Assembly (NCBI GenBank): GCA_964493915.1
Contig: CAZBQH010000425.1
Coordinates: forward strand, 121 to 64,120
DNA length: 64,000 nucleotides
Reading direction: 5' to 3'
Source of the DNA: an uncultured Nitrospiraceae bacterium
Lineage (GTDB): Bacteria; Hydrogenedentota; Hydrogenedentia; Hydrogenedentales; SLHB01
Positions 371 through 32,063 of the stretch are shown piece after piece. How positions within the stretch are numbered: the stretch's first letter is position 1; each line of letters begins with the position of its first letter. Position numbers and translations under genes: made by a program. A model generated the notes under the pieces. The model did no database searches, was not told where the DNA came from, and saw nothing but the letters and a program-made list of their open reading frames with translations.

Positions 371-527
371 TTTCCGTTCGGGACGTCCGGGTTTTAGACC
401 CTGACGTCCTGCCCACGATGTCTCGCGCGACCGCAGTTGTCTTTGCCTCGCCCTTCCCCCTACCAGCTCCTGCAGAGGACTTGCACCCCATAACCACAGC
501 GCCACCCTGGCACGCAGATAGCAAAGG
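371..527. repeat. Copy 1 of a ~160-nt structured repeat. It contains hairpins GGACGTCC-N14-GACGTCC and GTCCT-GCAG-AGGAC. Its second copy is at 2520-2686.
   Basis: Direct comparison of the two regions gives about 85% identity over about 160 nt, and the palindromic stems are conserved in both copies. Confidence 0.6.
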
Positions 528-8221: not shown

Positions 8222-8950
8222 GCCTCGATATTCGGCGCTATAGGCAGAGTCTTCGTCGGGTGGCCGTATTCCAACCGCAATGATGACCACCTCTATCTCC
8301 GAACGCTCCTCATCCTCCACGATGGTACCGATGATGATTCGAGTGTTACGCTCGACGCTTGATGTGACCTGGGCATGGACTTCCGATACTTCGCGCATCA
8401 GCAGGTCGCTCCCACCACGCACACTGATGATGACGCAGAAGGCGCGGGAGATGTCCGTGTGATCGAGGAGCGGGCAGGTCAGGGCGTTTTTGGCGGCGCG
8501 GGTTGCTCGTTCTGCGCCACCAGATACCCCTATACCCATCACGGCGCGGCCGCGTCCCCTCAACATGTTGCAGACATCAGGAATATCCAGGCCTATCAGA
8601 CCGCGGTTGGAAAACGCGTCGGCAACAGCGCGAATGCCTGTGTGAAGCACTTCATCACTCATGTGAAACGCTTCCCCCAGACTCACCCGGCTATCCGTCA
8701 GTTCAGCCACCCGGCCGTCGGGAATCGCAATCAACACATCGGCATGTTCGCCGAGCGCATGCAGGCCGTCAAGTGCTTGGTCCATGCGTGGTTTTCCCTC
8801 AAAGTGGAACGGCAGGGTCGCAAAGGCCATCACGAGCGCGCCAGCAGCAGCAGCTTCTTCGGCGATGACCGGCGAAGCCCCGCTGCCCGTGCCGCCACCC
8901 AGTCCCAGCGCCAGGAACACGATGTCCGCGCCCTGAGTCATGTCACGCAA
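8216..8950 (-). pseudogene. ftsZ: FtsZ-like protein lacking the N-terminal 90 to 100 residues. It begins just before the tubulin signature GGGTGSG. It has a TTG start and sits 17 nt downstream of the NACHT gene stop.
   Basis: The FtsZ core motifs are present: [20 protein letters not shown], a T7-like GLIGLDIPDV, and MGIGVSGG...RA..AA. The reading frame is closed by a stop at 9017-9019, so there is no room for the missing N-terminus. Confidence 0.55.
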
Positions 8951-8966
8951 GCGATCCCGATAGTCC

Positions 8967-11216
8967 TCACACTGTCGACTGACAGCCTGCGGGCTGGCCC
9001 ATGGAACGCTCTTCCCTCAGCCACACCCAGTAGCCGAGGAGTTCGTTCCAGTCGCGCTTTTGCATCAGCAGGAAGCGGTAAATATCCAGTAGGCAGGCGC
9101 GGAGACGGTCGCGGGATTCGGCCTGCCGCAGCAGCCAGGGGAGTTCGTCGGCTTGCCGCGCATCCACGGACCGCGCGGCAAATTCGTCGGCCAGCCGCAG
9201 GCGCAAGGCCCGGGCCGTGCCGGCATCGGGCACGTACCGCCGTTCGACCGCCACGTGCAGGTACTCGTGCGCGAAAGCCAGTACGCCGTCGCGGTCAACC
9301 AGGCCATCCTCCAGCGCGCAGCGCACTGGCGACCAGAGGGCAGCGGGCAGACGTTCCTGTCCGGCGGGTTTCAGCGCCTCCAGCAACTCCGGTTCGGTCA
9401 GGCCGCGGCGGGCGGCCCAGAGCAGCGACAAGGCCTCGCGCACCAGCCCGGGCCAGTCGCGCTCGTAGTCGCGCTCGAAGCGGGTCAGGATCTTGCCTAG
9501 CAAGGCGGGGATGTCGGCGGCCTGGAGATAGTCTGCGATTTGCCGGTCGAGCAATTCGTGGTCGCCCGTGGCGCGCAAGTCGTCGAGCAGGGTCTTGATG
9601 TACAGCGGATTGGAGGCCGCCGCCGCGCCCGCGATCTTCCGCGCGCGGGACTCGGAAAGGCCCTGCGCGAAGTGGGCGAGGTAGCGTGCGATCAGCCGGA
9701 CGCGTTCCTCCGTTGTGAGCGGCTCGACGGTGAGCGCGGGCCAGTCGCGTGGTTGTAGGGCGTCTAATGTGTCGCCGGGCAGGGCGGAGACGACCAGACG
9801 CAGTTCACCGGGCAGGCGATACGGCAGCCAGGCCAGCAGACGACCGCGTTCCCGGTCTTCGAGCTGGTTGAGGGCGTCGAGAACAAGGACCGCCCGGACC
9901 CCTTTCTGCCTGGCCCGTCCGGCGAGGCGGCTGAGGTAGTCGGGAAAGACCTTCACGATTTCCTCCGCCGCGGCGGGAATCTTCTTCTCTTCCTCCTCGA
10001 GCCCGCTCGCGCCGGCGGGATCGTCCGCGCCGCACCAGCGAACAATGGCCACCATCAGCCGGCGCATCAGGGCCAGATGCCCGGCGCTCATCGCGGAACT
10101 GCCGATGTAATGCTGAAACACGAAGTCGTTGGGGTTTACCTGACGCCGGCGCGCCACCCAGTTGGCCAGGAGCGCGGATTTGCCGCCCCCCGACGCGCCC
10201 AGAATGGTCAGACCGCAGCCATCGGCACCGTCGCGGGCAAAGGCGTCCAGCCGGTTGAAGTAGGCGTCGCGCCCGATGTAGAAGGCGGTGCGGCGGCTCT
10301 TCGCGTAGGCTTCGTGGTCGCGGTCTTCGCGAGACCAGTCGTCGGGCGTTTGGTCGGGCGGGAACTCGGCGTCAATGGCGCCCGTGAGATCGGCGAGAAC
10401 GAGGACGGCGAGGGCGTGGGGATGAGCATAGTTCTCGTGCAGGGGGATGCCCTTAACGTCGCAAACCGCCCTCACCTTCTGTTTGAGCGCTTCCTGGCGG
10501 GCGGCACAGGCGGCATCCTCCGCCAGGTAGTCGCCGCCTTGGGACGCGGCGTAGTGCGGGTCGCGAAAATAGAAGAAGGCCCGCCCGGCCATTTCGGGGT
10601 CGTTGAGCACGCCATGATAGATTTCCAGTTCGGTGACGCTGTGTTTGGCGACCTCGCGCTTCAGCCAGTCTTCTTCATCCAGGAGCGCCGGCGTAAAGGC
10701 CTCCGGGCCGGGCGTCCAGCCATAGCGTTCGCCCAGCAGCCCGATGAAGTAGGGACGGCAGCGCTTGATCTCCGCCAGACAGTGGCGCAGCGTTTCCTTC
10801 CGCTGCGACTGTTCTTCGGTGACACCCCAGCGCAGGTCCACCTCGACAAACTCCACCGCCCGCCCACGGCAGACCTTCCGCAGGGCCGGCCAGACGTGGG
10901 CCATGAGTTCGTTGCGATCTTCGATCATGTCGCGAAACGTCGAAGAGACGAAGACGCGGACAACGCGGTCTTTGGCGGAGGACTTGGGGTCCGGATTGGA
11001 AACGCGATCGGCGTCCGGGGGCGCGCTACTCGTGTTCGCCGGGGTCACCTTTTCTTGCCACAGACTCGCGGAGTCGGCATTCCCCGCTGTGCCGGGCGGT
11101 GTGTCGCCTGGCGGACATTGGGCTGAAGCGCTGGCCGGGGCCGGTGCTTCCGAATCATGCTCGGGTTGGTTCTTGTCCGATTTGCCGCTGCCAAACAGTC
11201 GTTTCCACAGGCTCAT
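8967..11216 (-). CDS. STAND (NACHT-type) P-loop NTPase with an N-terminal DUF4062-like domain.
   Basis: The N-terminal motifs are VFVSSTFRDM...DLRWG...FIGLLGERYGW. The Walker A reads ILGASGGGKSALLANW. The long alpha-helical C-terminal region is typical of STAND proteins. Confidence 0.7.
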   Translation of the reverse strand: MSLWKRLFGSGKSDKNQPEHDSEAPAPASASAQCPPGDTPPGTAGNADSASLWQEKVTPANTSSAPPDADRVSNPDPKSSAKDRVVRVFVSSTFRDMIEDRNELMAHVWPALRKVCRGRAVEFVEVDLRWGVTEEQSQRKETLRHCLAEIKRCRPYFIGLLGERYGWTPGPEAFTPALLDEEDWLKREVAKHSVTELEIYHGVLNDPEMAGRAFFYFRDPHYAASQGGDYLAEDAACAARQEALKQKVRAVCDVKGIPLHENYAHPHALAVLVLADLTGAIDAEFPPDQTPDDWSREDRDHEAYAKSRRTAFYIGRDAYFNRLDAFARDGADGCGLTILGASGGGKSALLANWVARRRQVNPNDFVFQHYIGSSAMSAGHLALMRRLMVAIVRWCGADDPAGASGLEEEEKKIPAAAEEIVKVFPDYLSRLAGRARQKGVRAVLVLDALNQLEDRERGRLLAWLPYRLPGELRLVVSALPGDTLDALQPRDWPALTVEPLTTEERVRLIARYLAHFAQGLSESRARKIAGAAAASNPLYIKTLLDDLRATGDHELLDRQIADYLQAADIPALLGKILTRFERDYERDWPGLVREALSLLWAARRGLTEPELLEALKPAGQERLPAALWSPVRCALEDGLVDRDGVLAFAHEYLHVAVERRYVPDAGTARALRLRLADEFAARSVDARQADELPWLLRQAESRDRLRACLLDIYRFLLMQKRDWNELLGYWVWLREERSMGQPAGCQSTV

Positions 11217-11266: not shown

Positions 11267-11512
11267 CTACAAACGTGATCCCATGACGCCCAGGATGCCC
11301 ACGAAAAAGGGGCGGCACACGTCGATCTGTTCGAGGCAGAGGTCGAGAACGCGGTCGTTCTCGGCCTCCTCGGGCGTAATGCCCCAGCGCAGGTCGATAT
11401 CAAACAGGTGGATGCGGTAGGGCAGCAGCCGTTCGCGCAGCCGCGGAAAGACCCGCTTCACCAGGATATCCCGCTCCGCGTCCATGTCGCGGAACGTCGA
11501 GGAGATAAACAC
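11267..11512 (-). pseudogene. A 5' fragment (about 75 codons) of a third DUF4062-NTPase paralog. It is truncated right after ...CRPFFVGILG.
   Basis: The motifs SSTFRDM...DLRWG...GILG are present. The fragment lies inside the 380-bp repeat at 11287-11666, and the frame terminates after 5 unrelated codons. Confidence 0.65.
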
Positions 11513-11727: not shown

Positions 11728-12840
11728 TCACGCGGCGCTGTCCAGAAGCGCGTTCATGCACGCCATGGATTCGTCCTCAACCAGTCGAATGGCCCGTATT
11801 GCCTTCTTGTTTCGTGCCACTGTCCCCGCGATCATGTGGAGGCGCCCCACGTTTGCGATAACAGGTTTCCACAGGGGGATGTCCGCTTTCTGTCCGGCTT
11901 GCCACCGTACGGGCGTCATCAGGAAGGTGTTTACATGATGCGACAAACGCTTGTACATCTCGAGGCCGGTCTTTGCCAGACTGCTCATGGCCGCGGCGTC
12001 CATGCCGTCGAGCATGGACAGCAACCGGCTGATGCCCGGGTTGGGATAGATCTCCTTGAAGAACCGGGCCATGTCGTCGGTCAGAAAACGCCGGAGTGTA
12101 CTCAGGTCGCAGCCGAGGGTAAGGTAGACCAGCTCGATGACGTGGCGCAACGAGGGGATGCCGAAGCCTTTGGATACAAGAAAGGCAAACCGCTGGTCGC
12201 TGTGCCATGCGCCTTGGAAAACACACCTTCCCAAGGCGTAGAGAAGCGCATCCACTTCCGCGTTGCCCTCCTCGCAGCGCTTGGCGAGAAGGTTCCGTGC
12301 GTCGTCGCGGAACAGCGAGAGCCTGAGGAAATACCGTTCGCGTCCGTACGTCATGAGGCGGGCAAAGCGTTCATCCAGGAGGGGGTATTCAGGACTGCGG
12401 TATAAATCCTCGGCAATGAGGCTGTACAGATCGTACCAGTCTTGACTGACGCGGGAGACGTAATAGGCGGGCATGCCGAATTCGAGCCGGCGAACGCTGA
12501 AGCTGACATCCCCCTGGCCGATCGTGCGCAGGCTGCTTCTGAGTTTGTCGGGCTGTGCGAGTGAGACCGTCGCCTCTCCATAGAACCCTTGGATACGTAC
12601 TTCCTTGGAAAGCACCTGGTTCGTTGCGTTCAACAGATCCTTCGTGCCGCCCTCCGTAAACAGCGTGTGCCGCAAGGCATCGTACTCGCGCAGGAGGCAG
12701 AAAAGGGACTGCAGGCCTTCGGGATCATACGCCGCCCTGCGGTGCCAAACCCCTGCAGCGTAGTATTTGGAAGGAAACCACGATGCGCCATGCTCGCCGG
12801 TGTCCACCCGGGTTCGTGCACTATGGGCGGCCTTGTCCAT
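11728..12840 (-). CDS. Hypothetical 370-aa protein. It is the last gene of the ClpB-like/MoxR/vWA operon.
   Basis: A long ORF on the same strand lies 20 nt after the vWA gene. I recognised no motifs in it. Confidence 0.5.
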   Translation of the reverse strand: MDKAAHSARTRVDTGEHGASWFPSKYYAAGVWHRRAAYDPEGLQSLFCLLREYDALRHTLFTEGGTKDLLNATNQVLSKEVRIQGFYGEATVSLAQPDKLRSSLRTIGQGDVSFSVRRLEFGMPAYYVSRVSQDWYDLYSLIAEDLYRSPEYPLLDERFARLMTYGRERYFLRLSLFRDDARNLLAKRCEEGNAEVDALLYALGRCVFQGAWHSDQRFAFLVSKGFGIPSLRHVIELVYLTLGCDLSTLRRFLTDDMARFFKEIYPNPGISRLLSMLDGMDAAAMSSLAKTGLEMYKRLSHHVNTFLMTPVRWQAGQKADIPLWKPVIANVGRLHMIAGTVARNKKAIRAIRLVEDESMACMNALLDSAA

Positions 12841-12860
12841 AAAGCCTCCTTTTCTTGTTT

Positions 12861-15026
12861 TTACGCGATATTGCGGCGTTCAGAAACGCAGTTTGCCACG
12901 TAGGACCCAATGACCTGAGCCGCTTCGGCCGCGTTCACGAGGTCGTTGGGCTCGATCACCATCACCGAATCCACGGCGGCCCGTATTTCCTCGGATACCT
13001 TGTCCTCCAGTGCAACCAGTGTAATGTGGAGTCGCTGATTGAATTGGGTTCGCGCAGAATCCAAGACCTCCCGCACTTCCTCGATGGGCGAGCTCTTGGA
13101 AGCGGGGAAGGACTTGTTCCATGAGCAGTCGCTGATAAGAATCAGATACGTTTGTGAACCTCGCGCCAAGGCCTTTGCCTCATCCAGAAGATATGTCAGA
13201 GACAGTGCGTCTGACTGGCGGCCCTGCCCCGAATCCGGCAGGGCGGCGACGGCCCGGACCGCCTCGCTGTGCGAAAACGCCGCTGTTTTTCTGGGGTGAT
13301 ACATCCACTGCACCAGCGGCGCCCCTCCCCGGTTGCCGACCGGGCCGCTGCTGTAAAGTGCCGCAATGATCTCGATCTGCCTGTTTTTGACGCTTTCCAG
13401 CCATGCCGCCACCAGCAGCTTGCACATGCGCATCTGGGAGTCTGTCAATGACGACGAGCCATCCGCGGCGATAAGTAGGAGTGCTTTGCCCGCGGGATCA
13501 CGTTGGGTGGACACGCGGGTCTGGCGGTAGACAGAATCGCTGAATTCCGCTATCGGGAGGCGCCGGGGGTCCATCTGTCCCGATGTGCGCGGGAACTCCA
13601 GTATGAACTCGTCCACCAGGCTCGGGTACAGATTCCGGCGCAGTACGTCGGCGATGGGGAAGGCGTCGTTCCGCAGCATCTGCACTTCGGCCTCGTTCTC
13701 ACTCAGAGCGACGGGCCGGTCAAAGAGTTCGCCCCCGACCTCCTTGCCCCCAAGCTCGCGGGTGATGTTCATCCCCGTTGTCGGCTGCCCCTCGAGAGGG
13801 CCCTTCGCGAAGGGTTTTCGTTCGATGTCTTGGCCAACCAGGTCTTCACGCATATCCTCCCATTGGGCATTCTGCCCGCTGGCCTTGTAGGCCGTTTGGG
13901 TCATGTCTTCGAATGCCTTCTCGGTATCTTTGTCCCGATTGGCCTCTTCGTCGAGGCCCGCCCCAAGATTGGCCACGTCTTCTGGCGTCTGCGAACCGGA
14001 CTGCCTCGAATTCAGCAGATTCTTGAGCACATCCCCGTGAGACGCAGGTTGCGTCAGCGCGGGGGCCCTCGGTTGTCCTAAAGGGGGAATGCAGTCTGAA
14101 TTACATTCCACTTCCTCGTGCTGGGGACCGTATTCGTATCTTTGATGCCCCCGACTGTTGAAGGCGGGCTGACCGGGCCCCTTCTTGGCGGAAGGTTGAG
14201 GCGGCTTGGGGGGCGGTTCGGCGGGCAAAAGAGGCAGTAGAGCGGCCATGATCTTTTTGCCCCAGGATGCATAGGAAGCAAGGGCGGTTTCCCCGTCCGA
14301 CACACCCTCCAATTCGGCATAATCCCTCGAAATGTCGGATAACCAGCGTAGTATTTGCGCCGTCATGGGGTGAAGGCGCATCTCGCTCTGCTCGGGGAGC
14401 ACATCCCCGAACAGCACGGCATGCCGAATCACATCATGGAGGTTCCGGAAGCGCAATGACGACTGTGATACCTGGAAGAGCCGGTAAATCTCCACGCACC
14501 GGAGTTCGGGCGACCTTGTCAGATCCGCCAGAATGGCGCGGTGGGCCAGCGCCAGCGCGACATCATGGCACACCTGCTTATATGCGGGCAGCAGTTTGCC
14601 GTGCCTGTTGGCCTCATCAAGGTCAATAACAGGCGCGATAATCGCTTTGTATATCTCATAAATGAGGCATTCCGTTTCCATGTATATCGTGTGTCCGAGC
14701 GCGGCGCGAGCCGGCCAGGGAAACGAGGTGTAGAAGGCGCTCAACTGGGGCTGCGCACCCTCACCCTTCTCCGGAAAGGCAAACCCGAGGTCGTTCTTGC
14801 GCAGGACGCTCCGCAGGTTCTGGATGGCCTGGTAGAACTTGATCTGCCCCTGTCTCTTGAATGTCCAGGGCGTGTCCTCGCTGAAGGCGCGGTCGATGGA
14901 CGCTCCCGCCCAGGTCTCCTTCGGAAGCACACGGGCGCCATATCTCCCGTGCCCGTAGGTGGAGCACCCGGCGGCCCCGTATCCCCCATACGAGCCATAC
15001 ATCAGGTAATCGTCCTGCATCATCAT
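12861..15026 (-). CDS. A 721-aa protein with a C-terminal von Willebrand factor A (vWA) domain and an uncharacterised N-terminal region of about 450 aa.
   Basis: The MIDAS motif reads LLLIAADGSSSLT. The sequence ILISDCSW is also present. The start codon overlaps the MoxR-like gene stop (ATGA). Confidence 0.65.
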   Translation of the reverse strand: MMMQDDYLMYGSYGGYGAAGCSTYGHGRYGARVLPKETWAGASIDRAFSEDTPWTFKRQGQIKFYQAIQNLRSVLRKNDLGFAFPEKGEGAQPQLSAFYTSFPWPARAALGHTIYMETECLIYEIYKAIIAPVIDLDEANRHGKLLPAYKQVCHDVALALAHRAILADLTRSPELRCVEIYRLFQVSQSSLRFRNLHDVIRHAVLFGDVLPEQSEMRLHPMTAQILRWLSDISRDYAELEGVSDGETALASYASWGKKIMAALLPLLPAEPPPKPPQPSAKKGPGQPAFNSRGHQRYEYGPQHEEVECNSDCIPPLGQPRAPALTQPASHGDVLKNLLNSRQSGSQTPEDVANLGAGLDEEANRDKDTEKAFEDMTQTAYKASGQNAQWEDMREDLVGQDIERKPFAKGPLEGQPTTGMNITRELGGKEVGGELFDRPVALSENEAEVQMLRNDAFPIADVLRRNLYPSLVDEFILEFPRTSGQMDPRRLPIAEFSDSVYRQTRVSTQRDPAGKALLLIAADGSSSLTDSQMRMCKLLVAAWLESVKNRQIEIIAALYSSGPVGNRGGAPLVQWMYHPRKTAAFSHSEAVRAVAALPDSGQGRQSDALSLTYLLDEAKALARGSQTYLILISDCSWNKSFPASKSSPIEEVREVLDSARTQFNQRLHITLVALEDKVSEEIRAAVDSVMVIEPNDLVNAAEAAQVIGSYVANCVSERRNIA

Positions 15027-16099
15027 ACCAAGTCTCCACCCGCAGCGACGGAGTTGGCCGTCTCACGCCGAAATCCGAACACCTCGCAGAAAAGGGCTTG
15101 CGCCGCCTCACGGTCCTCCAGGTTCGCCGACCCGAGAAGTGTCAGGTTTGCGACATCCGGCAGCGGGTAATGCGGGTCGCGGGCGGCCTCCCGGATGAAC
15201 GCGCAATACCCATAGATTGTCGGCGGAGCTAGGCTCAACAGGTTCCCCTGCGCACGTTGCGTGCGCAGCATCCCTCCAAGCTCCACGATATTGAGTACCA
15301 GGCCCTCATCGGTCGCGGGGAGATACTTGGTCTTCATCAGATAACGCAGAATCTCGACTTCTTGTTCTGGGGAGGGGAAGTCAAACGCGATGCTGACCGT
15401 CCAGCGGCGTTTCAGTGCGTCGTCTTGGGTGACGAGGATATGCGTGGACGTTGCATCGGTATGGTAGTTGGAATCGGCGAACCAAGCGACCCCGGCCCCG
15501 CTCACCATGGCGTTGTCAGATATCCGGGTGAATCCCTGCGTCATGAGGTTGAGCAGGCCGCCCTGGATGGCGGCCGTGGACACGCGGCCAATCTCGCGGA
15601 GCCAGATGACGGGATAAACATCATCCAGCACCTTCTTCGACTCCAGGATGGCATTGACGATACAGCTTGGCTCGTCATACGTCTGCCCGTCCCGGATGGC
15701 GCGGCGGTAGTACATCTCCGAGATCGTGTCAAAGACAACCATTTCGACGGGAAACACGCGCAGCGGCTTGTACTTGATGCCCCTCAGCGCGCACAACGCT
15801 TTCCAATTCTCCGGGACATAGGCAAGCGCCTCGAAGAAGCCCGTCTTCGCAGTGCCGGTGTGCCCGTGAATGTGAATCATTTCCGCGTCGGCTATTGCCC
15901 CGGCTATGGATTCCGGGATCCGCTTCGGCAGAACGATGGGCGGGCGGCCCCTGTCTGGCACAAGCGCCACCAGTTCCGAAGGGCCGGCCTTGGCCAGTTG
16001 TTTAGTGTCACGGATATCGTAGATGCTGGGGGCCGTGGAAGCCCGGTTCGCGTCCTGCGCCGCATACGCTTCCGTCTTTGACCGCCGTGCAAATCGCAT
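15023..16099 (-). CDS. MoxR-type AAA+ ATPase of the AAA_5 or CbbQ/NorQ-like type.
   Basis: The Walker A reads IHIHGHTGTAKTGFFEALA. It is about 360 aa, and it is translationally coupled to the downstream vWA gene. Confidence 0.6.
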   Translation of the reverse strand: MRFARRSKTEAYAAQDANRASTAPSIYDIRDTKQLAKAGPSELVALVPDRGRPPIVLPKRIPESIAGAIADAEMIHIHGHTGTAKTGFFEALAYVPENWKALCALRGIKYKPLRVFPVEMVVFDTISEMYYRRAIRDGQTYDEPSCIVNAILESKKVLDDVYPVIWLREIGRVSTAAIQGGLLNLMTQGFTRISDNAMVSGAGVAWFADSNYHTDATSTHILVTQDDALKRRWTVSIAFDFPSPEQEVEILRYLMKTKYLPATDEGLVLNIVELGGMLRTQRAQGNLLSLAPPTIYGYCAFIREAARDPHYPLPDVANLTLLGSANLEDREAAQALFCEVFGFRRETANSVAAGGDLV

Positions 16100-16144
16100 G
16101 GGATTCTCCCTTCTATTCCGCCCGGGTGACGGACGGTGTTGCCA

Positions 16145-18376
16145 TTAGCTTTCCGCGGCGCTCACACTCACGCGCAACCTTCCGTCGAATGCGAGTTCAA
16201 TCCAAGGGACGCCGTCTTTCCTGCTGAATGCCGGGCCGTGCCATGCCTCGACAGCAATCGCGGTTTCGGTGCGGGCCAGCCGGACAAGCCCCCGAGCGCC
16301 GTGGCTCATGGCGCTTGATTCCCACCCCGCCAGCAGGGCATCGGCGGCACCGTTCGCCACCGTGATCCGTGCAGAAGGGCTGCCCAAACGATCCAGCGCG
16401 GTGCGCGCGCTGTCCTCGATTGCCCGATGCACGATGCGCACGCGGGATTCCAGAGAGAGAGGTTCGAATAATACTGGCTCGCCCACGCGGCTTAGAAACG
16501 CACCTGAAACCATTTCTTTGACCGCGCGCTGTACGTCTTTGCTCACATCGGCGTGTACCGGCGCAGGCCCGAAGCCGGTCCGGCGGTATGCCTTCTCATC
16601 TTTGCCGCCGGGCAGGTTCAGCGTGAAGAGAATCGCCAGATTCGAGCATGAGAACATACTGCCTACGGCAGACTGAGCCTCCCCGGTTTCCAATATCTGC
16701 AGGAAGAGGTCGCCCAAAGCGCTCCGCACCGACGGGACTGCATGGTCCAAATCCGCCACTTCGACCACGGCCCCGCGGTGGTGTTTCGCCACCTGTTCGA
16801 GACGCCCCGCCTGGTAACTGCCAACAATTCCGCGGCCGCTTCCCAGAAGTTGCGAAGCCGCCGTATGCGGATCTGGCATGCTCGCAGCATCAATAACCAC
16901 ATACGGAACATCAAGCCACTTCGCCAACAGCGAAAGGGTTTCCGACTTGCCTGTGCCAGGGGTTCCCTGGAGGGCGCCGGTAAACGGTTGGCCCAAGGGC
17001 CGGGTCAGCGTCTCGCGTTTCAGGAGCGCACCGAACTCGTCCAGGGCCCGCTCCTGTCCGAGTACCCGTTCGCGCAGGTAGACTCCCAGTTGAGGGTCGC
17101 AGGCTCCCTGCAGGAAGTGTGCCTGAACCTCGGCGGATCGGTCCTGACTACGCTGTGTCCCGAGCCCCGCGAATGTTTCATGGCATAGACCCAGGCGGGA
17201 TGCGAAGAGGTCTACATCGGGCAAACACCCCCTGCTGCTTTTGGCAACTGCATGTTTGATCAGATGTGGAAGTAGTCGCTTCGCGGTGTTGCCCGGGTGG
17301 CCGGTCAGCGCGTTAAGGATGTCTTCATTTGCTTTGGCCTGAGTCTTGGGGGAGAGCATCGCACCTTCAGCCGCCTCGCGCATCCCGAAAGAGGCAAGCG
17401 CTTCGACCGGTATATCCGGCACCCGCCGGAGAACGGGCATCAAGGGGTCGTTCTTCGCTCCCTGGCCGCCATGGAACAATGTCTGCAGTTCGCTGAACGT
17501 GCCTTCAAACAGGCACGGAGTGCCGGCGCTGTTCAACACCGCAAGAAGACTGGTGGTGGCATTCCCCATTTCGTAAGGGCTCACGGTCAGCCCGAGCGCG
17601 CGCGCCGGCATCACCAGCCGCCCCTCGGTGTTCTGTGCCAATTGCACCAGTTTCTGCGCATCGAGTGAGGGGAGCAGGACTTGCCCAAGAACGATATCCT
17701 TCTGAAGGCAGGCCCCGGCCACCAAGACGATGGCAAGCCGGCGCTCGATATCACATTCGCAGGTAATGCCGATGCACAGCCCCGATTCGAACAAGTCAGC
17801 CGTTTCCGCAGCCCAGTTAGACACTCCGACGGGCACCCCGTCGTCACCGCCGGCCCAGGGCATCACCGGCTTCACGATCCCCTGCATGCCCTTGAATACC
17901 TTGCGCAAGGCGGCCTCGTCGGTCGAGGCTGACCTGGCAGGGCATACGAGAGCCGCCACCTGCCGGATCAAGTCCAATTCGCGGCGCCATTCGGCCAGTT
18001 CCAGAAGACTTGGTATCCCATCCCGCACCAACCGCCTGAGACCCAGCGCGGGCGGAGTTTGCCCTGCCGCCTCTTCCCATCCGAGCATCCAGTGGGCCGA
18101 GAGCTCCGTCACGGATTCCAGTGCCTCGGCAGGTAGTCCTCCAGACCGCAAAGTGAGCGCGCACTCGACGTACACCTCCCCACCCTCGTCGCGTCCTACG
18201 ATAACCTTGATTCCCTCGCGTCCCGCAAACTGAATTTGGCCAGGCTCCACCTCCTTAGTTTCACCCAGGTCAGGCCATGCCTCCCCAACAATACCGGCCA
18301 TGCGTCTCACCAACTGGGCCGGGCTCTGCTTCGTGAATACCTGCCCATTTCCCATGGTCGTGTCGGACGCGCTCAT
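16145..18376 (-). CDS. A 743-aa protein with a C-terminal ClpA/ClpB-type AAA+ (AAA_2, D2-like) domain and a novel N-terminal region of about 430 aa.
   Basis: The stretch GQERALDEFGALLKRE...LQGTPGTGKSETLSLLAKWL...VVIDAASMPDPHTASQLLGSGRGIVGSYQAGRLEQ parallels the Clp D2 sensor and Walker region. Confidence 0.6.
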   Translation of the reverse strand: MSASDTTMGNGQVFTKQSPAQLVRRMAGIVGEAWPDLGETKEVEPGQIQFAGREGIKVIVGRDEGGEVYVECALTLRSGGLPAEALESVTELSAHWMLGWEEAAGQTPPALGLRRLVRDGIPSLLELAEWRRELDLIRQVAALVCPARSASTDEAALRKVFKGMQGIVKPVMPWAGGDDGVPVGVSNWAAETADLFESGLCIGITCECDIERRLAIVLVAGACLQKDIVLGQVLLPSLDAQKLVQLAQNTEGRLVMPARALGLTVSPYEMGNATTSLLAVLNSAGTPCLFEGTFSELQTLFHGGQGAKNDPLMPVLRRVPDIPVEALASFGMREAAEGAMLSPKTQAKANEDILNALTGHPGNTAKRLLPHLIKHAVAKSSRGCLPDVDLFASRLGLCHETFAGLGTQRSQDRSAEVQAHFLQGACDPQLGVYLRERVLGQERALDEFGALLKRETLTRPLGQPFTGALQGTPGTGKSETLSLLAKWLDVPYVVIDAASMPDPHTAASQLLGSGRGIVGSYQAGRLEQVAKHHRGAVVEVADLDHAVPSVRSALGDLFLQILETGEAQSAVGSMFSCSNLAILFTLNLPGGKDEKAYRRTGFGPAPVHADVSKDVQRAVKEMVSGAFLSRVGEPVLFEPLSLESRVRIVHRAIEDSARTALDRLGSPSARITVANGAADALLAGWESSAMSHGARGLVRLARTETAIAVEAWHGPAFSRKDGVPWIELAFDGRLRVSVSAAES

Positions 18377-18413
18377 GACAATCTGCTCCCTTCATGTGGC
18401 CGTCCATGGATAA

Positions 18414-18429
18414 GGCAAGAATCGGGCCA
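18414..18429 (-). promoter_or_regulatory. Putative sigma54 (-24/-12) promoter TGGCCC-GATTC-TTGCC, 38 nt upstream of the ClpB-like gene ATG.
   Basis: GG and GC are spaced exactly as in the TGGCAC-N5-TTGCW consensus. An EBP-like gene is divergently encoded. Confidence 0.4.
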
Positions 18430-18455
18430 GTCTGCGGACACGCAGTAATGCGCTG

Positions 18456-18471
18456 CTAAGCCGTGGCTTAG
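18456..18471. promoter_or_regulatory. A 16-bp perfect palindrome CTAAGCCGTGGCTTAG in the divergent intergenic region. It is a candidate activator or UAS site.
   Basis: It is a perfect inverted repeat seen directly, about 30 bp upstream of the -24 element. Confidence 0.3.
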
Positions 18472-18593
18472 AGATCGGGCAGTCCCGGGAGGCTTTACCG
18501 AGAGCTGGGTTGTTTCAATCGAAATGTTGGGTTAATATTTCAAGAACTCAACACAGTCATCATGAACAACCCTAATACGCAAAGTGGGGGAAT

Positions 18594-20213
18594 ATGCTGG
18601 CAATACGAGTCGATTCCCAGAACGAAACCCTGGTTGAAGTGCATGACGGCGATCCGGGCCGGCTTCGCGAAGTGCTCTGCGAGCCCAAGTGCGCTCATGT
18701 GCTGTCTAACGAATGGATAGACGAGGTGTTGCGGGCTGCATTCCCGAAGAAGCGGTGCTATACAAAGAACAAGAACAAGGGATTCGCCAGTTGCATTGAT
18801 CTGAATGCCGGCGGTATACAGGCGGTTCGCACGAGCTACAGGTCCGAGAGACGCCTGCTCAGTCAAGGTTTGCGGCCATTGCTGAGGCAGATTCCCGAAG
18901 AAGCGGACACGTCGATTCTGGCAGGCGTTCCCGATGCGTTGTTCGAGCAGATGGCGCAGCGCCTCGACGATGGAGAGCATCCGGACCGCATGTGCGAATC
19001 TCGCACAAACCTTAAGAGAACCCTCCTCGACCTGCTGCCGGACATCAAGCCGCCTGCAAATATCCACCTGGAGGATCTCTTTCGCGGCCACTCGATCGAC
19101 GCGAAAACTGTTCGAAAGCTCATCACCATCACAGCCCGCGCGGACATGCCCGTACTGGTTCTTGGACCGACCGGCACGGGCAAGGGCATCGTCGCTCGAG
19201 CTATCCATGATTGCAGTAAGCGTTCGGGAGACTTCATCACGGTTAACTGCGCCGCGATACCTCCACCCCTGTTCGAATCGGAAGTCTTTGGCTATGTTTC
19301 GGGAGCGTTTACGAACGCGCTCAAAGCAGGCAAGAAAGGAGCTTGGGCTCGCGCCAACAATGGAACGCTGTTTCTCGATGAGATTGCTGATCTCCCCATC
19401 GAGTGCCAGCCCAAAATACTCCATGCGCTCGAGGCAGAGCGCATCCTGCCCGTAGGTGCGACCGAAGAAGTCTCTGTGTCGGCCCGGATTATCGCCGCAA
19501 CCAGCCGGAACCTGTTTCGTCTCGTTGAACAAGGTCTGTTCCGCGAAGACCTGTTTCACCGGCTTCGACGAACCACGATCAACACGCCGCCCATCGAAAC
19601 TGAAGGCAAAGAGCTGCGCAAAATCATCGCTCTTATGTGGGCCGACCTGTCTGAGAAAACCAAGTGCCCTCTCAGTCCCCAAGTCATAGATATGCTCGCC
19701 GAGCAGCGTTGGGCAGGACACTTCCGCGACCTGAAGGGGTTCCTCGAAGGACTCGATGCAACCTGGCCCGGCCAAACCATAACCCCGACGCACGTGAAGG
19801 CGCTCATGCACCACCGCGGACCGACGCCTATGCCTGAACCCGAGGATGGCGCCAACACCCGCCTCGCCCGCGAGATTCGCCGCATCGAGCGCCAGCATCA
19901 TCTGAACCGCACCGCCGAAATCCTGCATGCCGTTCAGAATGCCGTGGCCGTGCTGACTCGCAAGAACAGCCTCCTCCCCCCGGACCTCGAAAGCGTCATC
20001 ACGCACCGCCTGGTCGAATTGGACCTCATGCTCCATACGCCCCTACGGTTCGGAAACGGAAACGTGTATGAAGCTGTGGCCGCCGTGCGCAACAGCCTGG
20101 CGGAACTGTGCAGCCTCCTTGGGCAGGACGCTACACAAGCCCGCACCCATGCCCGGCGCCGCACCGTCCCGGTCATCAAAAAAGCCCTTGCAGTCCTCTT
20201 CGGCGCGACGTGA
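18594..20213 (+). CDS. A sigma54-interaction-domain AAA+ protein (bacterial enhancer-binding-protein-like). It has an unknown N-terminal domain and no recognisable C-terminal HTH.
   Basis: The Walker A reads VLVLGPTGTGKG. A GAFTNA (GAFTGA-like) motif is present. The stretches ANNGTLFLDEIADLPIECQPKILHALE, ARIIAATSRNL and GLFREDLFHRL are also present. The RBS GTGGGGGA lies before the ATG. Confidence 0.65.
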   Translation: MLAIRVDSQNETLVEVHDGDPGRLREVLCEPKCAHVLSNEWIDEVLRAAFPKKRCYTKNKNKGFASCIDLNAGGIQAVRTSYRSERRLLSQGLRPLLRQIPEEADTSILAGVPDALFEQMAQRLDDGEHPDRMCESRTNLKRTLLDLLPDIKPPANIHLEDLFRGHSIDAKTVRKLITITARADMPVLVLGPTGTGKGIVARAIHDCSKRSGDFITVNCAAIPPPLFESEVFGYVSGAFTNALKAGKKGAWARANNGTLFLDEIADLPIECQPKILHALEAERILPVGATEEVSVSARIIAATSRNLFRLVEQGLFREDLFHRLRRTTINTPPIETEGKELRKIIALMWADLSEKTKCPLSPQVIDMLAEQRWAGHFRDLKGFLEGLDATWPGQTITPTHVKALMHHRGPTPMPEPEDGANTRLAREIRRIERQHHLNRTAEILHAVQNAVAVLTRKNSLLPPDLESVITHRLVELDLMLHTPLRFGNGNVYEAVAAVRNSLAELCSLLGQDATQARTHARRRTVPVIKKALAVLFGAT

Positions 20214-20459: not shown

Positions 20460-21803
20460 CTAACCTTCCGTCAATTGCATCACATGAAGGACACCCCATC
20501 TCTCTTTCACATAGAGACATCCATCCCACGCCGCACCAAAATCGCCGGGCTGGAAAAAGCCGCCTCCCGTGGGGAAGTGGGCAATGCAATGCTGGTGTTC
20601 TTCTACGGCTACATCGCCATCCCTACATGGCTTTACCGAGATATTCCATGTTCTTGAGTGGGGATTGACGAGCTTCCTTGATTCAGTATCCCAAGTGCCA
20701 AATCGTATGGACGATGCGGTACGCCAGAATTCTTTCTGACGGTCTGAATCTATCAAAGGCGCCTCATTGCTGTTAAGAGCCCAAACACGGACATAGCCCT
20801 CCCAACAGCCCGTGGCTATCCGTCCATTGGGAAGGGCAACCAATACATCCACAATATCAGGATGCCTGAAGATGTGTTCGAGTTGCCCGGATGTGGCGTT
20901 CCAAACATAGACGCAATTACTCCAAGCAGCAACCACCCGTCCCCCCATCAAGATAAGCGCCCTTACGTCTCCGTCTTCTTCGTGAAGCGTCATCTGTTGG
21001 GCTGTAGCCCGGCTCTGCATGATGAGACGCATTTTGCTCACCCCTTTGTCCGTCTTACCACAGCATTCAGCAAAAACACGGCCGCCATTTGGCAGAGTAA
21101 GGGGGTCTACAGACGGATCTGCAAAGGAGCAGTTCGGCTTCGCCTTGTCTCGGAGATGCTCCGGGAGTTCCACGACACTTGTTACGTCTTCAGGCGTCCC
21201 AAAGCGCTCGATATGCCATCGAAGCACGCGGCCATCTTTTGCGGCCGAGATGAAGCATTTGGCAGATTCCGACAAAAGAAATGTTACGGCATCATTGTGA
21301 CCCTTCACCGATGCAAGCGACAGCAATGAAGTTGCATCCCACAGGCGAACAGTGCCATCGCCTCCAGCCGAAATTAGGTAATTCTCAATCACCAAAAGCC
21401 CGGTAGCATCGGCCCCATGTCCAGGCTGCAAAACAGTGCTGCGTGGCGCACCCAGTCTACAAGTATATGGATAAAGTGAACGTACCCAAATGAAGCCGGG
21501 CATTATATATCCCTTGGCTTCCCGCCATTGCCCAAGAATCGCTGAAAGCTTTATGCATTCCTGCTCCCATGGTGGAGTGCTCTTATCGCCATCGCTCACC
21601 TTGTAATACTCTGCCGCCTCCGGACAGTCATACCACCAGCAGGAATTCCACATGCACTGGAAGAGCGTAGTCGGATGGCGGTCGATGAAGTAGATGTCGC
21701 GGCGGATGGCTTCTGCGAGCAGGCCCAGCATGCGGTGCTTCGGATGCTCAACGGGCATCGCCGCCACGGCGTCATGGAAGTCTTGTGCGAGGGAGAAGAT
21801 CAT
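20460..21803 (-). CDS. WD40 repeat protein of about 447 aa. Its N-terminal domain of about 90 aa is homologous to that of the 864-aa WD40 protein.
   Basis: GDGTVRLWD-type WD repeats are present. The GGAGGGAG RBS favours the ATG at 21803 (MIFSLAQDF...), and this start aligns to MILALLQDL of the upstream gene. Confidence 0.6.
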   Translation of the reverse strand: MIFSLAQDFHDAVAAMPVEHPKHRMLGLLAEAIRRDIYFIDRHPTTLFQCMWNSCWWYDCPEAAEYYKVSDGDKSTPPWEQECIKLSAILGQWREAKGYIMPGFIWVRSLYPYTCRLGAPRSTVLQPGHGADATGLLVIENYLISAGGDGTVRLWDATSLLSLASVKGHNDAVTFLLSESAKCFISAAKDGRVLRWHIERFGTPEDVTSVVELPEHLRDKAKPNCSFADPSVDPLTLPNGGRVFAECCGKTDKGVSKMRLIMQSRATAQQMTLHEEDGDVRALILMGGRVVAAWSNCVYVWNATSGQLEHIFRHPDIVDVLVALPNGRIATGCWEGYVRVWALNSNEAPLIDSDRQKEFWRTASSIRFGTWDTESRKLVNPHSRTWNISVKPCRDGDVAVEEHQHCIAHFPTGGGFFQPGDFGAAWDGCLYVKERWGVLHVMQLTEG

Positions 21804-21837
21804 GCAGCACGCTCCCTCCGAAATTTGCATACGTAAT

Positions 21838-24432
21838 TCATTTGTGGTCTTCTACGAGATGACGATCGAGCCACAGATTATTGACGTCAGGGCTTTCCAA
21901 CAGACCACAGAGATTCAACACAAAACGCCTGGCGTGAGCATCATCGCCCTCAGCACGAATCACAAGCTTCGTGCCTTGACCCGCAGCAAGGACGAGCACA
22001 GCCATCATGTCGGTGGCATCGGTTGCGTCAGATGCAGCAACGTCAGGTCTCCGGAGGGTCACAGCGTGCCCGAACCTTATGGTTTCACGCCCCACGACAT
22101 TCGCGAGAATGGCATCGAGTCCTGTCTCGACACCGACGGTTACGGTCGCAGTGGTTTCGCCGTTGCCTTGCTTTAGAGGGCATGAGAGTCCTGCGGTCAC
22201 CCATGTCAATCGTCTTTGCGCACCATGTGCTACGCGTTGGTCTCTATCTTCGACAAAGCATTTCAGCAAAGACGGATCGTGAATGGCACCTATCGCGATT
22301 GAGCGCAGATGCAAACAATCTTCATCCCCGATCAACCCTATGAGCTTGGCATAGATCTCACGGCGTTGATCTTCGTCGAGCGTAGACGCTTCTGCCGTAG
22401 TAGTTAGTGACTTCAGACGATCCGCTGCCGCGACGCGTATATGAATAGGCGTGCCTGCGGATTCGATCAGTTCGAACAGATGGTTAATGTCATCGCTGTG
22501 CAGAACACCGTCCCTTTCTCTCAAACGGGAAAGGACCTCTTCTTCTTGCAGGCGAAGTTGCGCTGGAGGGATACGATGTCCTCCATCAATGTTGTCCACG
22601 GCGAAGAACGCCACGCCGCCGCCCAAACAACCAACGGCAAGAACGCCACCATTCTCGGATAACTTGCAGCAACTTGGCGTGTGTTCAAGAACGTGCGAGG
22701 CGAGCGGCAGTGCCGCTTGGCAATCCCAGAGCATCACGGCTTTGTCTATCCCTACAGACATTGCATATTGGCCATCAGCGGATATCGAACAATTAGTTAC
22801 GGGGCCAGTATGTCCAACAACTGTTCTAACCGAAGGAGCGACGCTGGCGAAATCGACAAATGCAATCTTGCCTTGCGAATCCCCAATAATGCCTTGATGC
22901 GCGTTCATGCTTAATGCACAAGGGAGCGACGTACAAATATTCAACTCTAGACCAAAATGCCCCGTATACGCGTTATCTACACACAGCCACCGCATACTGT
23001 CCATTTGTTGCTGCCAAACGATTTCGCCCCAATGATTCTCGGCCCGCAAATCGAAGAGCATAGCCACTCCTTTGTAGCAATCTACTGCCAGCAAAGCACT
23101 GTGCGCAGAAAAGGCCGCAATATCGATACCCCAGGGAAGAGAATGATCAACTATCTGATAAATTTCTTGTGCTTCCTGAAAATCATTGCGACCGAATTGC
23201 TCTAAATATGAGGATATATCGACAATCCAACAATCAAATTTACGCCCCCAATACTTCCCTAATACATAACCTGTATATTTCGAAGCACAGAGAGGTATTA
23301 ACCACGTCTGAAAGTCCTTTTCAAGAACTCGAGGATTTTCGGATATTGGATGCCATGCTATGTCTTTGGTTCTGCCAGTTGAAATATCGAGCATTTGAAC
23401 GAATTTCTTGCATTGCACAAGTGCTTGATTTTGTGATGGGAGGTATTCCAAAAATGGCCCAATTTCTGAGTACCTTCCTAAAGCCGATTTGTGTACCAAG
23501 CACGCTTCGTCCAGATTCCAGACAATGCATTCACTATTCAAATCTAAGGAAATGCATCTTCTTCCCTCGTAGTCCAAGTCAATAGATCTGACTCTAGTCG
23601 AATGACCTTCGATAGATGGCGCATTGCTTTTTACGAGCTTTGCTGCATCCCAGACTGCAATCTCTCCAGACTTGGATGCTGTAGCAAAGCGCGTTCCGGG
23701 GCCTAATTGGATTAAGGACGTTATTGATAAATCGTGGGGTCGCCATCCGCAGTAGAAGGGTTTCACTATTTCAATAGAGCGACCTCTTATATCAATCTCG
23801 ATGTGAAAATCGTTGCCGATGCTTAAAGCATCGATGCCTGATGTGCCCTTCTTGCCCTCAAAGTATATTTGTTTGTTGTTAAGTGTAACACAGAAGGTCT
23901 CGGGTAATAGCAAGATAGAGCCAAACCAAGTCAATTCTTTATCATCCCTAGTTTGCGTTTGCCTTATCGTCTCTTGTCTTGTGTCCGGAACGACAAAGTC
24001 ACAATGCAGAATCTTGCCAGACGTAAGTTTCCATAGTAAGGTCTTCTTCTCTGCTGTTACGGCCAAAAGAATGTCTTCTTCTGGAGCATATGCCAAAGCT
24101 ACGTCCTGGCCACTAGACTCAATGTGAAAGACCCAATCCGGTGTTTGGTTAGCTCCAGAGGAAAGGGGAACATGTATACAGCGCAACCAGGGTTTTCCCT
24201 GATCTGATTCCCATGCAGTGAGTAACTGGTGCAACTGATCGCTAGCATCTGCTCCATGACGCGACACCAAATCGGCATAAAGAATTCCAAAAAAACACCA
24301 TGGATATTCTATTATTCGGGGTGCAACCCGTCGAACTGCTCGGGTAATCTCCCTAATGGCTACGTAACTCGTATTAGCAGATGGCATCGCATCCAAGGCA
24401 TTATTTAAGTCCTGCAAGAGTGCTAAGATCAT
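21838..24432 (-). CDS. An 864-aa WD40 or beta-propeller protein with a shared N-terminal domain, HEAT-like helices and a C-terminal HPr-like domain in which the active-site His is replaced by Asp.
   Basis: WD-like repeats are present. The C-terminal stretch TVGVETGLDAILANVV...VAASDATDATDMMAVLVLAAGQGTKLVIRAEGDDAHA...LCGLLE aligns to HPr (GLHTRPAAQFV...[29 protein letters not shown]). The start overlaps the NACHT gene stop (ATGA). GC is lower than in neighbouring genes. Confidence 0.55.
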   Translation of the reverse strand: MILALLQDLNNALDAMPSANTSYVAIREITRAVRRVAPRIIEYPWCFFGILYADLVSRHGADASDQLHQLLTAWESDQGKPWLRCIHVPLSSGANQTPDWVFHIESSGQDVALAYAPEEDILLAVTAEKKTLLWKLTSGKILHCDFVVPDTRQETIRQTQTRDDKELTWFGSILLLPETFCVTLNNKQIYFEGKKGTSGIDALSIGNDFHIEIDIRGRSIEIVKPFYCGWRPHDLSITSLIQLGPGTRFATASKSGEIAVWDAAKLVKSNAPSIEGHSTRVRSIDLDYEGRRCISLDLNSECIVWNLDEACLVHKSALGRYSEIGPFLEYLPSQNQALVQCKKFVQMLDISTGRTKDIAWHPISENPRVLEKDFQTWLIPLCASKYTGYVLGKYWGRKFDCWIVDISSYLEQFGRNDFQEAQEIYQIVDHSLPWGIDIAAFSAHSALLAVDCYKGVAMLFDLRAENHWGEIVWQQQMDSMRWLCVDNAYTGHFGLELNICTSLPCALSMNAHQGIIGDSQGKIAFVDFASVAPSVRTVVGHTGPVTNCSISADGQYAMSVGIDKAVMLWDCQAALPLASHVLEHTPSCCKLSENGGVLAVGCLGGGVAFFAVDNIDGGHRIPPAQLRLQEEEVLSRLRERDGVLHSDDINHLFELIESAGTPIHIRVAAADRLKSLTTTAEASTLDEDQRREIYAKLIGLIGDEDCLHLRSIAIGAIHDPSLLKCFVEDRDQRVAHGAQRRLTWVTAGLSCPLKQGNGETTATVTVGVETGLDAILANVVGRETIRFGHAVTLRRPDVAASDATDATDMMAVLVLAAGQGTKLVIRAEGDDAHARRFVLNLCGLLESPDVNNLWLDRHLVEDHK

Positions 24433-32046: not shown

Positions 32047-32063
32047 GTCCTTTGGCTTCTTCT

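Follow-up and report, generated by a model that had tools for sequence, protein, structure and literature searches.

A conserved Clp-type AAA+, MoxR and vWA operon with a candidate sigma-54 promoter and a divergent activator: a possible conflict system of the vWA-MoxR ternary kind

The window analyzed here is a stretch of 64,000 nt from an uncultured bacterium that is deposited as a member of the Nitrospiraceae and is placed by GTDB in the Hydrogenedentales (assembly GCA_964493915.1, contig CAZBQH010000425.1, positions 121 to 64,120 of the forward strand). Its minus strand carries a four-gene operon that encodes a Clp-type AAA+ protein, a divergent MoxR-class AAA+ protein, a von Willebrand factor A (vWA) protein and a soluble orphan protein, and a sigma-54 enhancer-binding protein (EBP) is encoded divergently from the first gene. 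The set is best read as a conserved, horizontally mobile and transcriptionally gated protein-remodelling system of the vWA-MoxR ternary conflict kind, and its most likely role, to which a probability of roughly 0.5 can be given, lies in defence or conflict.

The four genes of the core are ClpL743 (743 aa, 16145..18376), MoxR358 (358 aa, 15023..16099), vWA721 (721 aa, 12861..15026) and unk370 (370 aa, 11728..12840), transcribed in this order from the minus strand. All four are open reading frames (ORFs), and the first three were identified by profile matches, by family motifs and by an AlphaFold2 (AF2) model, respectively. They are separated by 45, -4 and 20 nt, the negative value marking the overlap by 4 nt of the MoxR358 stop codon with the vWA721 start. 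ClpL743 begins with an ATG at 18376 that is preceded by a ribosome-binding site (GGGAG), and 217 nt separate it from the activator gene EBP539 (539 aa, 18594..20213, plus strand), which was recognized by its Sigma54_activat match. On the operon strand no internal sigma-70-like promoter was found within the operon, and its terminator-like sites are no more numerous than those in shuffled sequence. No core protein has an evident transmembrane segment. An earlier note on this DNA, made from the letters alone, had described the four-gene operon at 11728-20213, its gaps and the divergent activator ORF exactly as found here, and had named the products as a protein with a Clp D2-type AAA+ domain, a MoxR ATPase, a protein with a C-terminal vWA domain and its metal ion-dependent adhesion site (MIDAS), and a 370-aa protein without assignment. 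These identities are upheld, with the MoxR protein proving divergent. An ORF of 498 aa that runs antisense to the EBP539 gene (18540..20036, minus strand) is without a family match and was taken as spurious.

This arrangement is not peculiar to the window. A scan of one genome per species gave 18 loci, and a metagenome scan gave 20 more. The hosts of the 18 loci are Hydrogenedentales, Acidobacteriota, Lentisphaeraceae, Brocadiia, Cytophagia, several Desulfobacterota, Nitrospirota, a betaproteobacterium, Myxococcales and Saprospiraceae. The gene order that the earlier note had put forward from a single genome, ClpL-MoxR-vWA-unk370, is kept in every related locus with enough sequence, in all approximately 30 loci from more than 10 phyla. 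Two genomes of the cultured species Desulfosarcina ovata are among the carriers of the four-gene core (L044, AP021876.1 1309416-1330429; L045, AP021879.1 1187731-1208744). In both, NACHT and HEAT-repeat genes lie upstream on the same strand and two small genes lie downstream, and in one of the strains an extra gene of 532 aa is inserted just upstream. Two more distant relatives (L048, 10001-14106; L049, 10001-14121) have MoxR-vWA-unk370-like genes without a Clp gene, and the trio can therefore be regarded as the core of the system. In L049, an activator with a PAS domain and a normal HTH_8 domain is encoded convergently just downstream. Another locus (L013, 10004-21010) contains a tandem duplication: the first copy is MoxR-vWA-unk370, in front of which no Clp gene was detected, and the second is ClpL-MoxR-vWA-unk370.

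By its profile matches, the part of ClpL743 that spans residues 432-743 is an AAA+ module of the ClpA/B D2 type (HCLR clade), with its large and its small domain. Residues 469-631 match Pfam AAA_2 at 3e-10, residues 432-704 match the NCBIfam ClpA/ClpB/ClpV models, and the family profile matches ClpA, ClpC, Hsp104, ClpB and human CLPB, with ClpA as the best of them (4e-17). When aligned by hhalign, residues 432-731 correspond to residues 564-851 of Escherichia coli ClpB, covering the large and the small part of D2, with a probability of 96.6%. The Walker A motif (GTPGTGKS), sensor-1 (N587), the Arg-finger (FLSRIG) and sensor-2 (GAR) are conserved in the family. The Walker B motif is non-canonical, its "DE" being replaced by [S/A/C]D in all homologues (VVEVSDLDHA at residues ~536-546 of the window protein), and an invariant Glu stands two residues upstream of the replaced pair.

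The remainder of ClpL743 is of a different nature. Residues ~1-150 are hypervariable, with 16% identity across homologues versus 57% in the AAA+ core, and residues ~150-430 form a conserved region with the motif FTG..ELQ.VFHGGQGG..DPLLPVVRH.P. Family and profile searches returned no match for residues 1-430, there was no match to Clp_N, D1 or the M-domain, and hhalign comparison of the N-terminal and middle regions with the C-terminal region detected no internal AAA+ duplication. A degenerate D1 ring at residues ~190-430 was considered, and it was unsupported by hhalign both within the protein and against E. coli ClpB. Judged by its equivalog scores, ClpL743 is not a ClpB orthologue: it reaches 59 bits with TIGR02639 (ClpA, cut-off 993) and 48 bits with TIGR03346 (ClpB, cut-off 1232). 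The D2 of ClpB/Hsp104 and human CLPB (Skd3) resemble ClpL743 in the D2 nucleotide-binding plus small domain, the GAR motif, the Arg finger and the pore-loop region, and human CLPB is also like it in that only one AAA+ module can be detected, which follows an unrelated N-terminal region. ClpB differs in having Clp_N, D1 and the M-domain, a Walker B DE, and the pore loop GYVGY where ClpL743 has GIVGSY.

The family of MoxR358 has at least 144 homologues of about 337 aa each. Although the window protein itself has no Pfam match, 26 of 27 family members match AAA_5 weakly (best 1e-5, all near or below the cut-off), 21 of the 27 give sub-threshold matches to bpMoxR (PF20030, best 1.6e-4), and the family profile matches CobS at 1e-7 and the MoxR structure 2r44 at 3e-3. 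The P-loop reads GHTGTAKT in the window and GxxGTAK[ST] in the family (consensus GPTGTAKS), keeping the Lys and replacing the second Gly by Ala. The Walker B motif is WLREIGR (residues ~165-172), following the family pattern hhWL[R/K]E (typically hhWLREMGR) in which Arg or Lys stands in place of the Asp in 27/27 members, and the Arg-finger region is DDALKRR. In all loci the vWA partner gene lies directly downstream of the MoxR gene. Taken by its sequence relationships, MoxR358 is probably a divergent MoxR-class (AAA_5/bpMoxR-like/CobS-like) AAA+ protein. Members of one mostly Desulfobacterota sublineage have their MoxR gene divided, always at one position (~residue 256/267), into two ORFs of ~240 aa and ~99 aa (L015 4546-5515, L016 10016-11022, L017 9998-11007, L018 9992-10967, L034-L037 and L046 10001-11015). 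For L046 the split was confirmed by independent gene calls; either a true division of the gene or a programmed frameshift may account for it.

For vWA721, none of 17 homologues has a Pfam match and the profile search against PDB sequences gave only noise. NCBIfam and PADLOC scans were likewise unproductive for vWA721 and MoxR358, both with the single proteins and with all members of their alignments. The AF2 model divides the protein into an all-alpha region (residues 36-266), a disordered Pro/acidic linker (275-415) and a vWA alpha/beta domain (515-720); a conserved segment containing a beta-hairpin is modelled at ~385-440. A Pro/acidic linker ahead of a vWA domain is also a feature of CobT and BchD. 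Residues 515-720 were modelled with a predicted local distance difference test score of 80-90, and their best Foldseek match is the VWA domain of NorD in the NorQ-NorD complex (9qh6_G, E 1.6e-6, probability 1.0), followed by vWF-A1/vWF-A and integrin I domains, likewise with a probability of 1.0. The MIDAS residues D522, S524, S526 and D633 are invariant in 17 sequences; the position of the MIDAS Thr is uncertain, the candidate site being GTG in most homologues and GQG in the window. On the strength of the model, the C-terminus of vWA721 is a predicted vWA domain with an intact MIDAS.

The third member of the trio, unk370, belongs to a small family with 215 representatives among 1.84 billion proteins, all of them standalone and most of them full-length at ~330-440 aa. 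Its predicted fold, obtained with confidence, consists of a helical hairpin (residues 40-78), a seven-stranded sheet (81-173) and a helical bundle (174-369), and the model matched no solved or viral fold and no cofactor-binding fold. Neither the single sequence nor the members of the alignment matched a family in Pfam, NCBIfam or PADLOC, and the profile search against PDB sequences returned noise. The protein is predicted to be a client or an effector of the MoxR-vWA pair.

The divergent gene encodes a member of the sigma-54 activators, as the earlier note had proposed, ascribing to it a GAFTNA loop and a novel N-terminus, and both points are borne out. EBP539 matches Sigma54_activat (PF00158) at 8e-54 and solved activators, in the PDB profile search, at 2e-89. 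It is composed of an N-terminal domain (residues 1-160), a sigma-54-interaction AAA+ core (~160-410) that contains the GAFTNA loop, and a helical C-terminal domain (411-539). The N-terminal 160 and the C-terminal ~130 residues are conserved among homologues and match no known domain: no REC, PAS, GAF or CARF domain was found in the homologues, and none of 11 gave an HTH_8 match at E<=1. RtcR is among the best PADLOC/NCBIfam matches, and the PADLOC match covers the AAA+ core of RtcR. A CARF-like sensor was rejected, as hhalign against E. coli RtcR aligned the AAA+ core only.

A near-consensus -24/-12 element of the sigma-54 type (TGGCCC-N5-TTGCC, 18414..18429, minus strand; promoter match TGGCCCGATTCTTGC at 18415..18429, minus strand) lies 38 nt upstream of the ClpL743 ATG, where the earlier note had placed it. 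The pattern has two matches in the 64-kb window against 3.7 expected and alone is no better than chance; it gains significance from where it lies and from being conserved in homologous loci. With a score of at least 8/10 required and the hit rate in the loci themselves as background, an element was present upstream of the ClpL homologue in 7/14 loci under strict scoring (GG and GC intact, p ~7e-7) and in 10/14 under loose scoring (G at -12 alone required, p ~3e-10). The elements in homologous loci are always 38-67 nt from the start codon. In the ClpL743-EBP539 intergenic region, no sigma-70-like site was found on the operon strand. The element of the window is classed as a candidate sigma-54 promoter, conserved ahead of ClpL743 homologues.

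Further upstream, four elements with a CAAC/GTTG core form two nested inverted pairs at 18507..18572, an outer pair (GGGTTGTT / AACAACCC) and an inner pair (TGTTGAG / CCCAACA), and constitute a candidate upstream activating sequence. These pairs sit about 80-145 bp upstream of the -24 element, a spacing typical of enhancers. In 12 homologous intergenic regions there are 32 copies of the motif A[ACT][TC]CAAC (AAnYCAAC) where 1.2-2.3 would be expected, and 0/2000 shuffles reach 32, a statistic that is optimistic because the motif was defined post hoc from the same data. At least two copies are found near the activator gene in 11/12 loci. Between the upstream sites and the -24 element is what had been described as a 16-bp perfect palindrome. 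It is really an imperfect 7+2+7 inverted repeat (CTAAGCC-AC-GGCTTAG, 18456..18471), and its sequence is not conserved in other loci; the inverted repeat that L003 carries in the corresponding position is a different one. It was rejected as the activator site, being imperfect and unconserved where the CAAC repeat is the conserved signal; it could be an operator or a bending site.

The private sigma-54 and activator circuit that the earlier note had read into the window is frequent among the loci but not universal. The activator gene is adjacent in ~15 of ~21 distinct loci with upstream sequence (~70%), usually divergent and sometimes downstream (L027, L050), and in at least 10 loci the activator is homologous over its full length, including the orphan N-terminus. 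Activator and promoter are both absent in L014, L016, L046 and D. ovata, where neither L044 nor L045 has an activator or a -24/-12 element.

Beyond the core and its activator, the most frequent associates are proteins with a RyR domain. In the window, a fusion protein NUDIX-RelA/SpoT-SLOG-RyR (989 aa, 3072..6041, minus strand, from Pfam matches) has synthetase motifs that appear intact on reading of its sequence, and it is a probable accessory partner of the operon. When 93 flanking ORFs from 17 loci were surveyed with Pfam, RyR was the commonest family (7/93), followed by RelA_SpoT, TIR_2, SLOG, NACHT and Hsp70. RyR-domain proteins are linked in ~10 loci, mostly as NUDIX plus RelA/SpoT-SLOG-RyR and often co-operonic with the activator. 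In L006, L007, L008 and L025, a NUDIX and/or RelA/SpoT-SLOG-RyR gene follows the activator on the same strand with gaps of ~10-70 nt (RyR-linked genes at 2440-5639, 2899-5821, 2933-5855 and 2507-5572, respectively). L003 has a NUDIX gene after the activator and a TrkA_N-RyR gene after unk370; in L004, a TrkA_N-RyR gene abuts unk370; in L010 and L012, RyR proteins are encoded 4-6 kb or less from the operon. L050 has the order ClpL-MoxR-vWA-unk-EBP-HEAT-x-RelA/SpoT-TPR-SLOG-RyR, all on one strand (RyR-linked genes at 19359-21050). The components are thus one fused protein in the window, and a NUDIX gene plus a RelA/SpoT-SLOG-RyR gene elsewhere. That the linkage of RyR, NUDIX and RelA/SpoT persists despite such rearrangement argues for a functional connection. 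A RyR adaptor hidden in a core protein was also sought, and hhalign of the RyR alignment against all five component alignments was negative.

The surroundings of the operon are rich in conflict-type genes. The window from ~1 to 33 kb is island-like, with a group II intron fragment, the RelA/SpoT-RyR gene, STAND, WD40 and AbiEii genes, transposases and a tRNA-Lys, and is likely to be a mobile island of defence genes. The intron fragment (D1-D4) lies at 258..432 (minus strand), and tRNA-Lys(UUU) at 33215..33290 (minus strand). Two DDE transposases and an AbiEii toxin gene occupy 27368..28480 (minus), 29529..30686 (plus) and 31174..32439 (minus). Directly downstream of the operon is a STAND-type system on the minus strand (8216..8950, 8967..11216 and 11267..11512), which comprises a small DUF4062-only ORF, a DUF4062-STAND(AAA_16/NACHT-like)-TPR protein and a 244-aa FtsZ/tubulin-like protein that is truncated at its N-terminus; the last fits the rare FtsZ-type effectors of Kaur et al. 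(2020). Beyond the activator, three conflict-type genes lie on the minus strand (20460..27035). Two of them encode WD40 proteins, of 456 aa and of 864 aa, the longer of which has PTS-HPr as its C-terminal domain, and the other encodes a second DUF4062-STAND protein, with a winged helix (DUF4062-STAND-winged-helix, 868 aa). In other genomes the flanks are variable and include TIR-TPR, NACHT, Ser/Thr kinases of the PD-T4-6 type and PDC candidates. Over the loci as a whole they are rich in STAND/NACHT, TIR, DUF4062, RelA/SpoT-SLOG-RyR, AbiEii and transposase genes. A consistent metabolic context of the Cox or Nor maturation type had been named in the earlier note among three outcomes that would speak against its finding, the others being absence of the gene order from other genomes and lack of conservation of the -24/-12 match. 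No Nor, Cox, Cbb or Cob gene was seen in the flanks of the examined loci, and all three checks favoured the finding. Large Hsp70-family genes lie a few kb from the module in three loci (L007 15864-18071, L008 16323-18362, L046 3756-6716) and may represent another chaperone-based system or a further accessory.

Among described systems, the operon comes closest to the FtsH ternary vWA-MoxR conflict systems, in their simple type (Kaur et al., 2020). In that study, vWA-MoxR systems are reported that include a further AAA+ chaperone and a separately encoded effector and whose vWA protein begins with an all-alpha region, and the FtsH ternary and beta-propeller ternary subsystems carry a MoxR with the P-loop GxxxTAKS. 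The third component of the FtsH ternary systems has two FtsH-type AAA+ domains, the N-terminal one inactive, and a NEFF1 or radical-SAM effector gene is adjacent (Kaur et al., 2020). Common to the operon and these systems are the P-loop GxxxTAKS in MoxR, a large all-alpha domain at the N-terminus of a divergent vWA protein, a second AAA+ chaperone with extra N-terminal regions, an adjacent standalone gene of unknown fold that is taken as the effector, and hosts that include Deltaproteobacteria and Planctomycetes. The earlier note was right to link the operon to the MoxR-vWA ternary systems. The operon differs in that its second AAA+ protein is of the ClpA/B-D2 (HCLR) type rather than the FtsH type: ClpL743 has no PF00004 match, no FtsH chain appeared among the profile matches within the thresholds searched, and no inactive N-terminal AAA+ copy was detected. 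There is no radical-SAM gene in the operon, and none of the Pfam-derived families of Kaur et al. (2020) matches an operon protein, bpMoxR reaching only sub-threshold scores in the MoxR relatives. The MoxR-vWA-beta-propeller ternary systems (bpMoxR, PF20030) are alike in the P-loop variant and in the sub-threshold bpMoxR matches of 21/27 relatives, but vWA721 has no beta-propeller and there is no TPR or propeller third component.

The characterized MoxR-vWA remodellers NorQ-NorD, CbbQ-CbbO, CoxD-CoxE, CobS-CobT and RavA-ViaA have in common with the operon a MoxR gene followed by a vWA gene with a MIDAS, NorD being closest in vWA fold and CobS closest to the MoxR profile. The operon differs from them in the loss of the Walker B Asp, the extra Clp-type AAA+ protein, the orphan third gene and the predicted sigma-54 control, and no Nor, Cbb, Cox or Cob client or pathway gene is nearby. 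On the regulatory side, RtcR-rtcBA, PspF-psp and RtcR-like/CoCoNuT arrangements are alike in having a dedicated activator beside the presumed target operon, with the N-terminal domain as the presumed sensor, and RtcR-like sigma-54 activators have been proposed to gate predicted CoCoNuT defence operons (Bell et al., 2024; PMC11090510). RtcR differs in its CARF domain, which does not align with the N-terminus of EBP539, in the helical C-terminal domain of EBP539 and in the upstream motif. The combination had been called undescribed in the earlier note. This was too strong, as Kaur et al. (2020) and the CoCoNuT activators precede it, but the exact combination was not found described: the literature gave no description of a Clp-D2-type AAA+ protein, unk370, an activator and a RyR link together. 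The terms sigma-54, sigma54, enhancer and RyR are absent from the text of Kaur et al. (2020), and the text of one supplement is likewise without the terms searched; the sole mention of NtrC in that paper is a general remark, and the sole mention of ClpB is in the title of a cited paper.

A working scheme for such a system can be proposed. In the absence of a signal, the sigma-54 promoter would keep the operon silent. A signal, perhaps a nucleotide that the RelA/SpoT-SLOG-RyR and NUDIX partners synthesize or break down, would be sensed by the orphan N-terminal domain of the activator, which would then bind the CAAC repeats ~80-145 bp upstream and open the promoter complex. The MoxR ring, tethered through the vWA MIDAS as in NorQ-NorD and CbbQ-CbbO, would remodel unk370 or assemble a complex around it. 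The Clp-type ring, guided by its variable N-domain, would unfold or disassemble a target or a component of the system. The outcome might be effector activation leading to growth arrest, or removal of the target. In its most specific form, the scheme becomes a two-operon immune or stress circuit, in which an alarm nucleotide, produced upon infection or damage by a NUDIX-restrained RelA/SpoT-SLOG-RyR protein, acts through the activator N-domain on a Clp plus MoxR-vWA dual-motor machine and thereby on an effector of novel fold. This full chain is speculative and rather improbable as a whole.

Several observations weigh against a gated defence system. The defence role is drawn from guilt by association and from analogy to systems that are themselves only predicted. 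As far as the sequence searches go, the core proteins are outside the anti-phage models catalogued in PADLOC-DB v2.0.0: MoxR358, vWA721 and unk370 have no match, and ClpL743 has only a weak one, to the generic AAA+ region of PDC-M37B. Neither phage nor plasmid collections yielded homologues of unk370 by tblastn. The core contains no domain recognizable as a toxic or enzymatic effector, and unk370 is without fold relatives. Because the Walker B motif is non-canonical in both ClpL743 and MoxR358, ATP hydrolysis is not assured. The gating is also uneven. Activator and promoter are missing in ~30% of loci, those of cultured D. ovata included, about half of the loci lack the RyR partner, and EBP539 has no recognizable DNA-binding domain. 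In four activator homologues (L005, L010, L015 and L018) the GAFTGA loop is degenerate (GTHSEA, GTMPNS, GAFNLA and GSHATA), and three of these loci either have an off-consensus -12 element (TTGG) or gave no -24/-12 match at all, which suggests that sigma-54 dependence may be lost or altered in some lineages.

Other functions have to be weighed against the same evidence. The operon might be a dedicated maturation or activase system of ordinary physiology, in which MoxR-vWA and the Clp-type ATPase insert a cofactor into, or remodel, unk370 or the RyR protein. The nearest structure to the vWA domain is NorD bound to NorQ, the nearest solved relative of the MoxR profile is CobS, the characterized MoxR-vWA pairs all act on a co-encoded client, and unk370 is always the third gene, even in loci without a Clp gene. 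Against this, the flanks differ from locus to locus, are rich in conflict genes and show no consistent metabolic neighbour; the distribution is patchy over distant phyla, the unk370 family is small and standalone, unk370 matches no cofactor-binding fold, and the linkage of the activator, NUDIX and RelA/SpoT suggests signalling rather than a pathway. Maturation is accordingly regarded as an unlikely, but not a negligible, explanation.

A Psp- or Rtc-like inducible response to proteotoxic or envelope stress, with the activator sensing damage and a Clp-type disaggregase plus a MoxR-vWA chaperone repairing host proteins, is considered just as unlikely as maturation. It would account for the ClpB/Hsp104/CLPB D2-type unfoldase module and for the dedicated activator, since PspF and RtcR typically run stress operons, and Hsp70-like genes occur near the module in L007, L008 and L046. 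General stress systems are usually vertically inherited, though, whereas this one is rare, sporadic and island-borne; moreover, the Clp N-domain is hypervariable, the Clp protein is dispensable in some relatives, and the co-located genes are TIR, STAND and RelA/SpoT genes. The neighbourhood itself offers one more explanation, that the four genes are a sub-module of the adjoining DUF4062-STAND/WD40 island systems and stand beside the activator by accident. In the window, L012, L018 and L025 the module directly adjoins a DUF4062 or STAND gene, and L012 even has a STAND gene in the position of the activator, but most loci are without a STAND or DUF4062 neighbour and the activator and promoter co-vary with the module across phyla. 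This explanation is very improbable.

If the remodelling system of the ternary conflict kind is the correct reading, it would be of use for a class that is large and predicted, the vWA-MoxR ternary systems, for which no experimentally worked-out member was found. The system is compact (five to seven genes), clearly delimited and present in cultured Desulfosarcina ovata, and an explicit on-switch, made up of the sigma-54 promoter, the dedicated activator and a candidate binding motif, renders it testable. Should the proposed links hold, unk370 would add a family without known fold relatives as client or effector, alarmone-type signalling (RelA/SpoT, NUDIX, SLOG) would be tied to sigma-54 transcription and AAA+ remodelling, and a first function would be given to the bacterial RyR domain. 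The two-operon circuit, if true, would be a transcriptionally licensed, alarmone-coupled counterpart of the ternary conflict systems.

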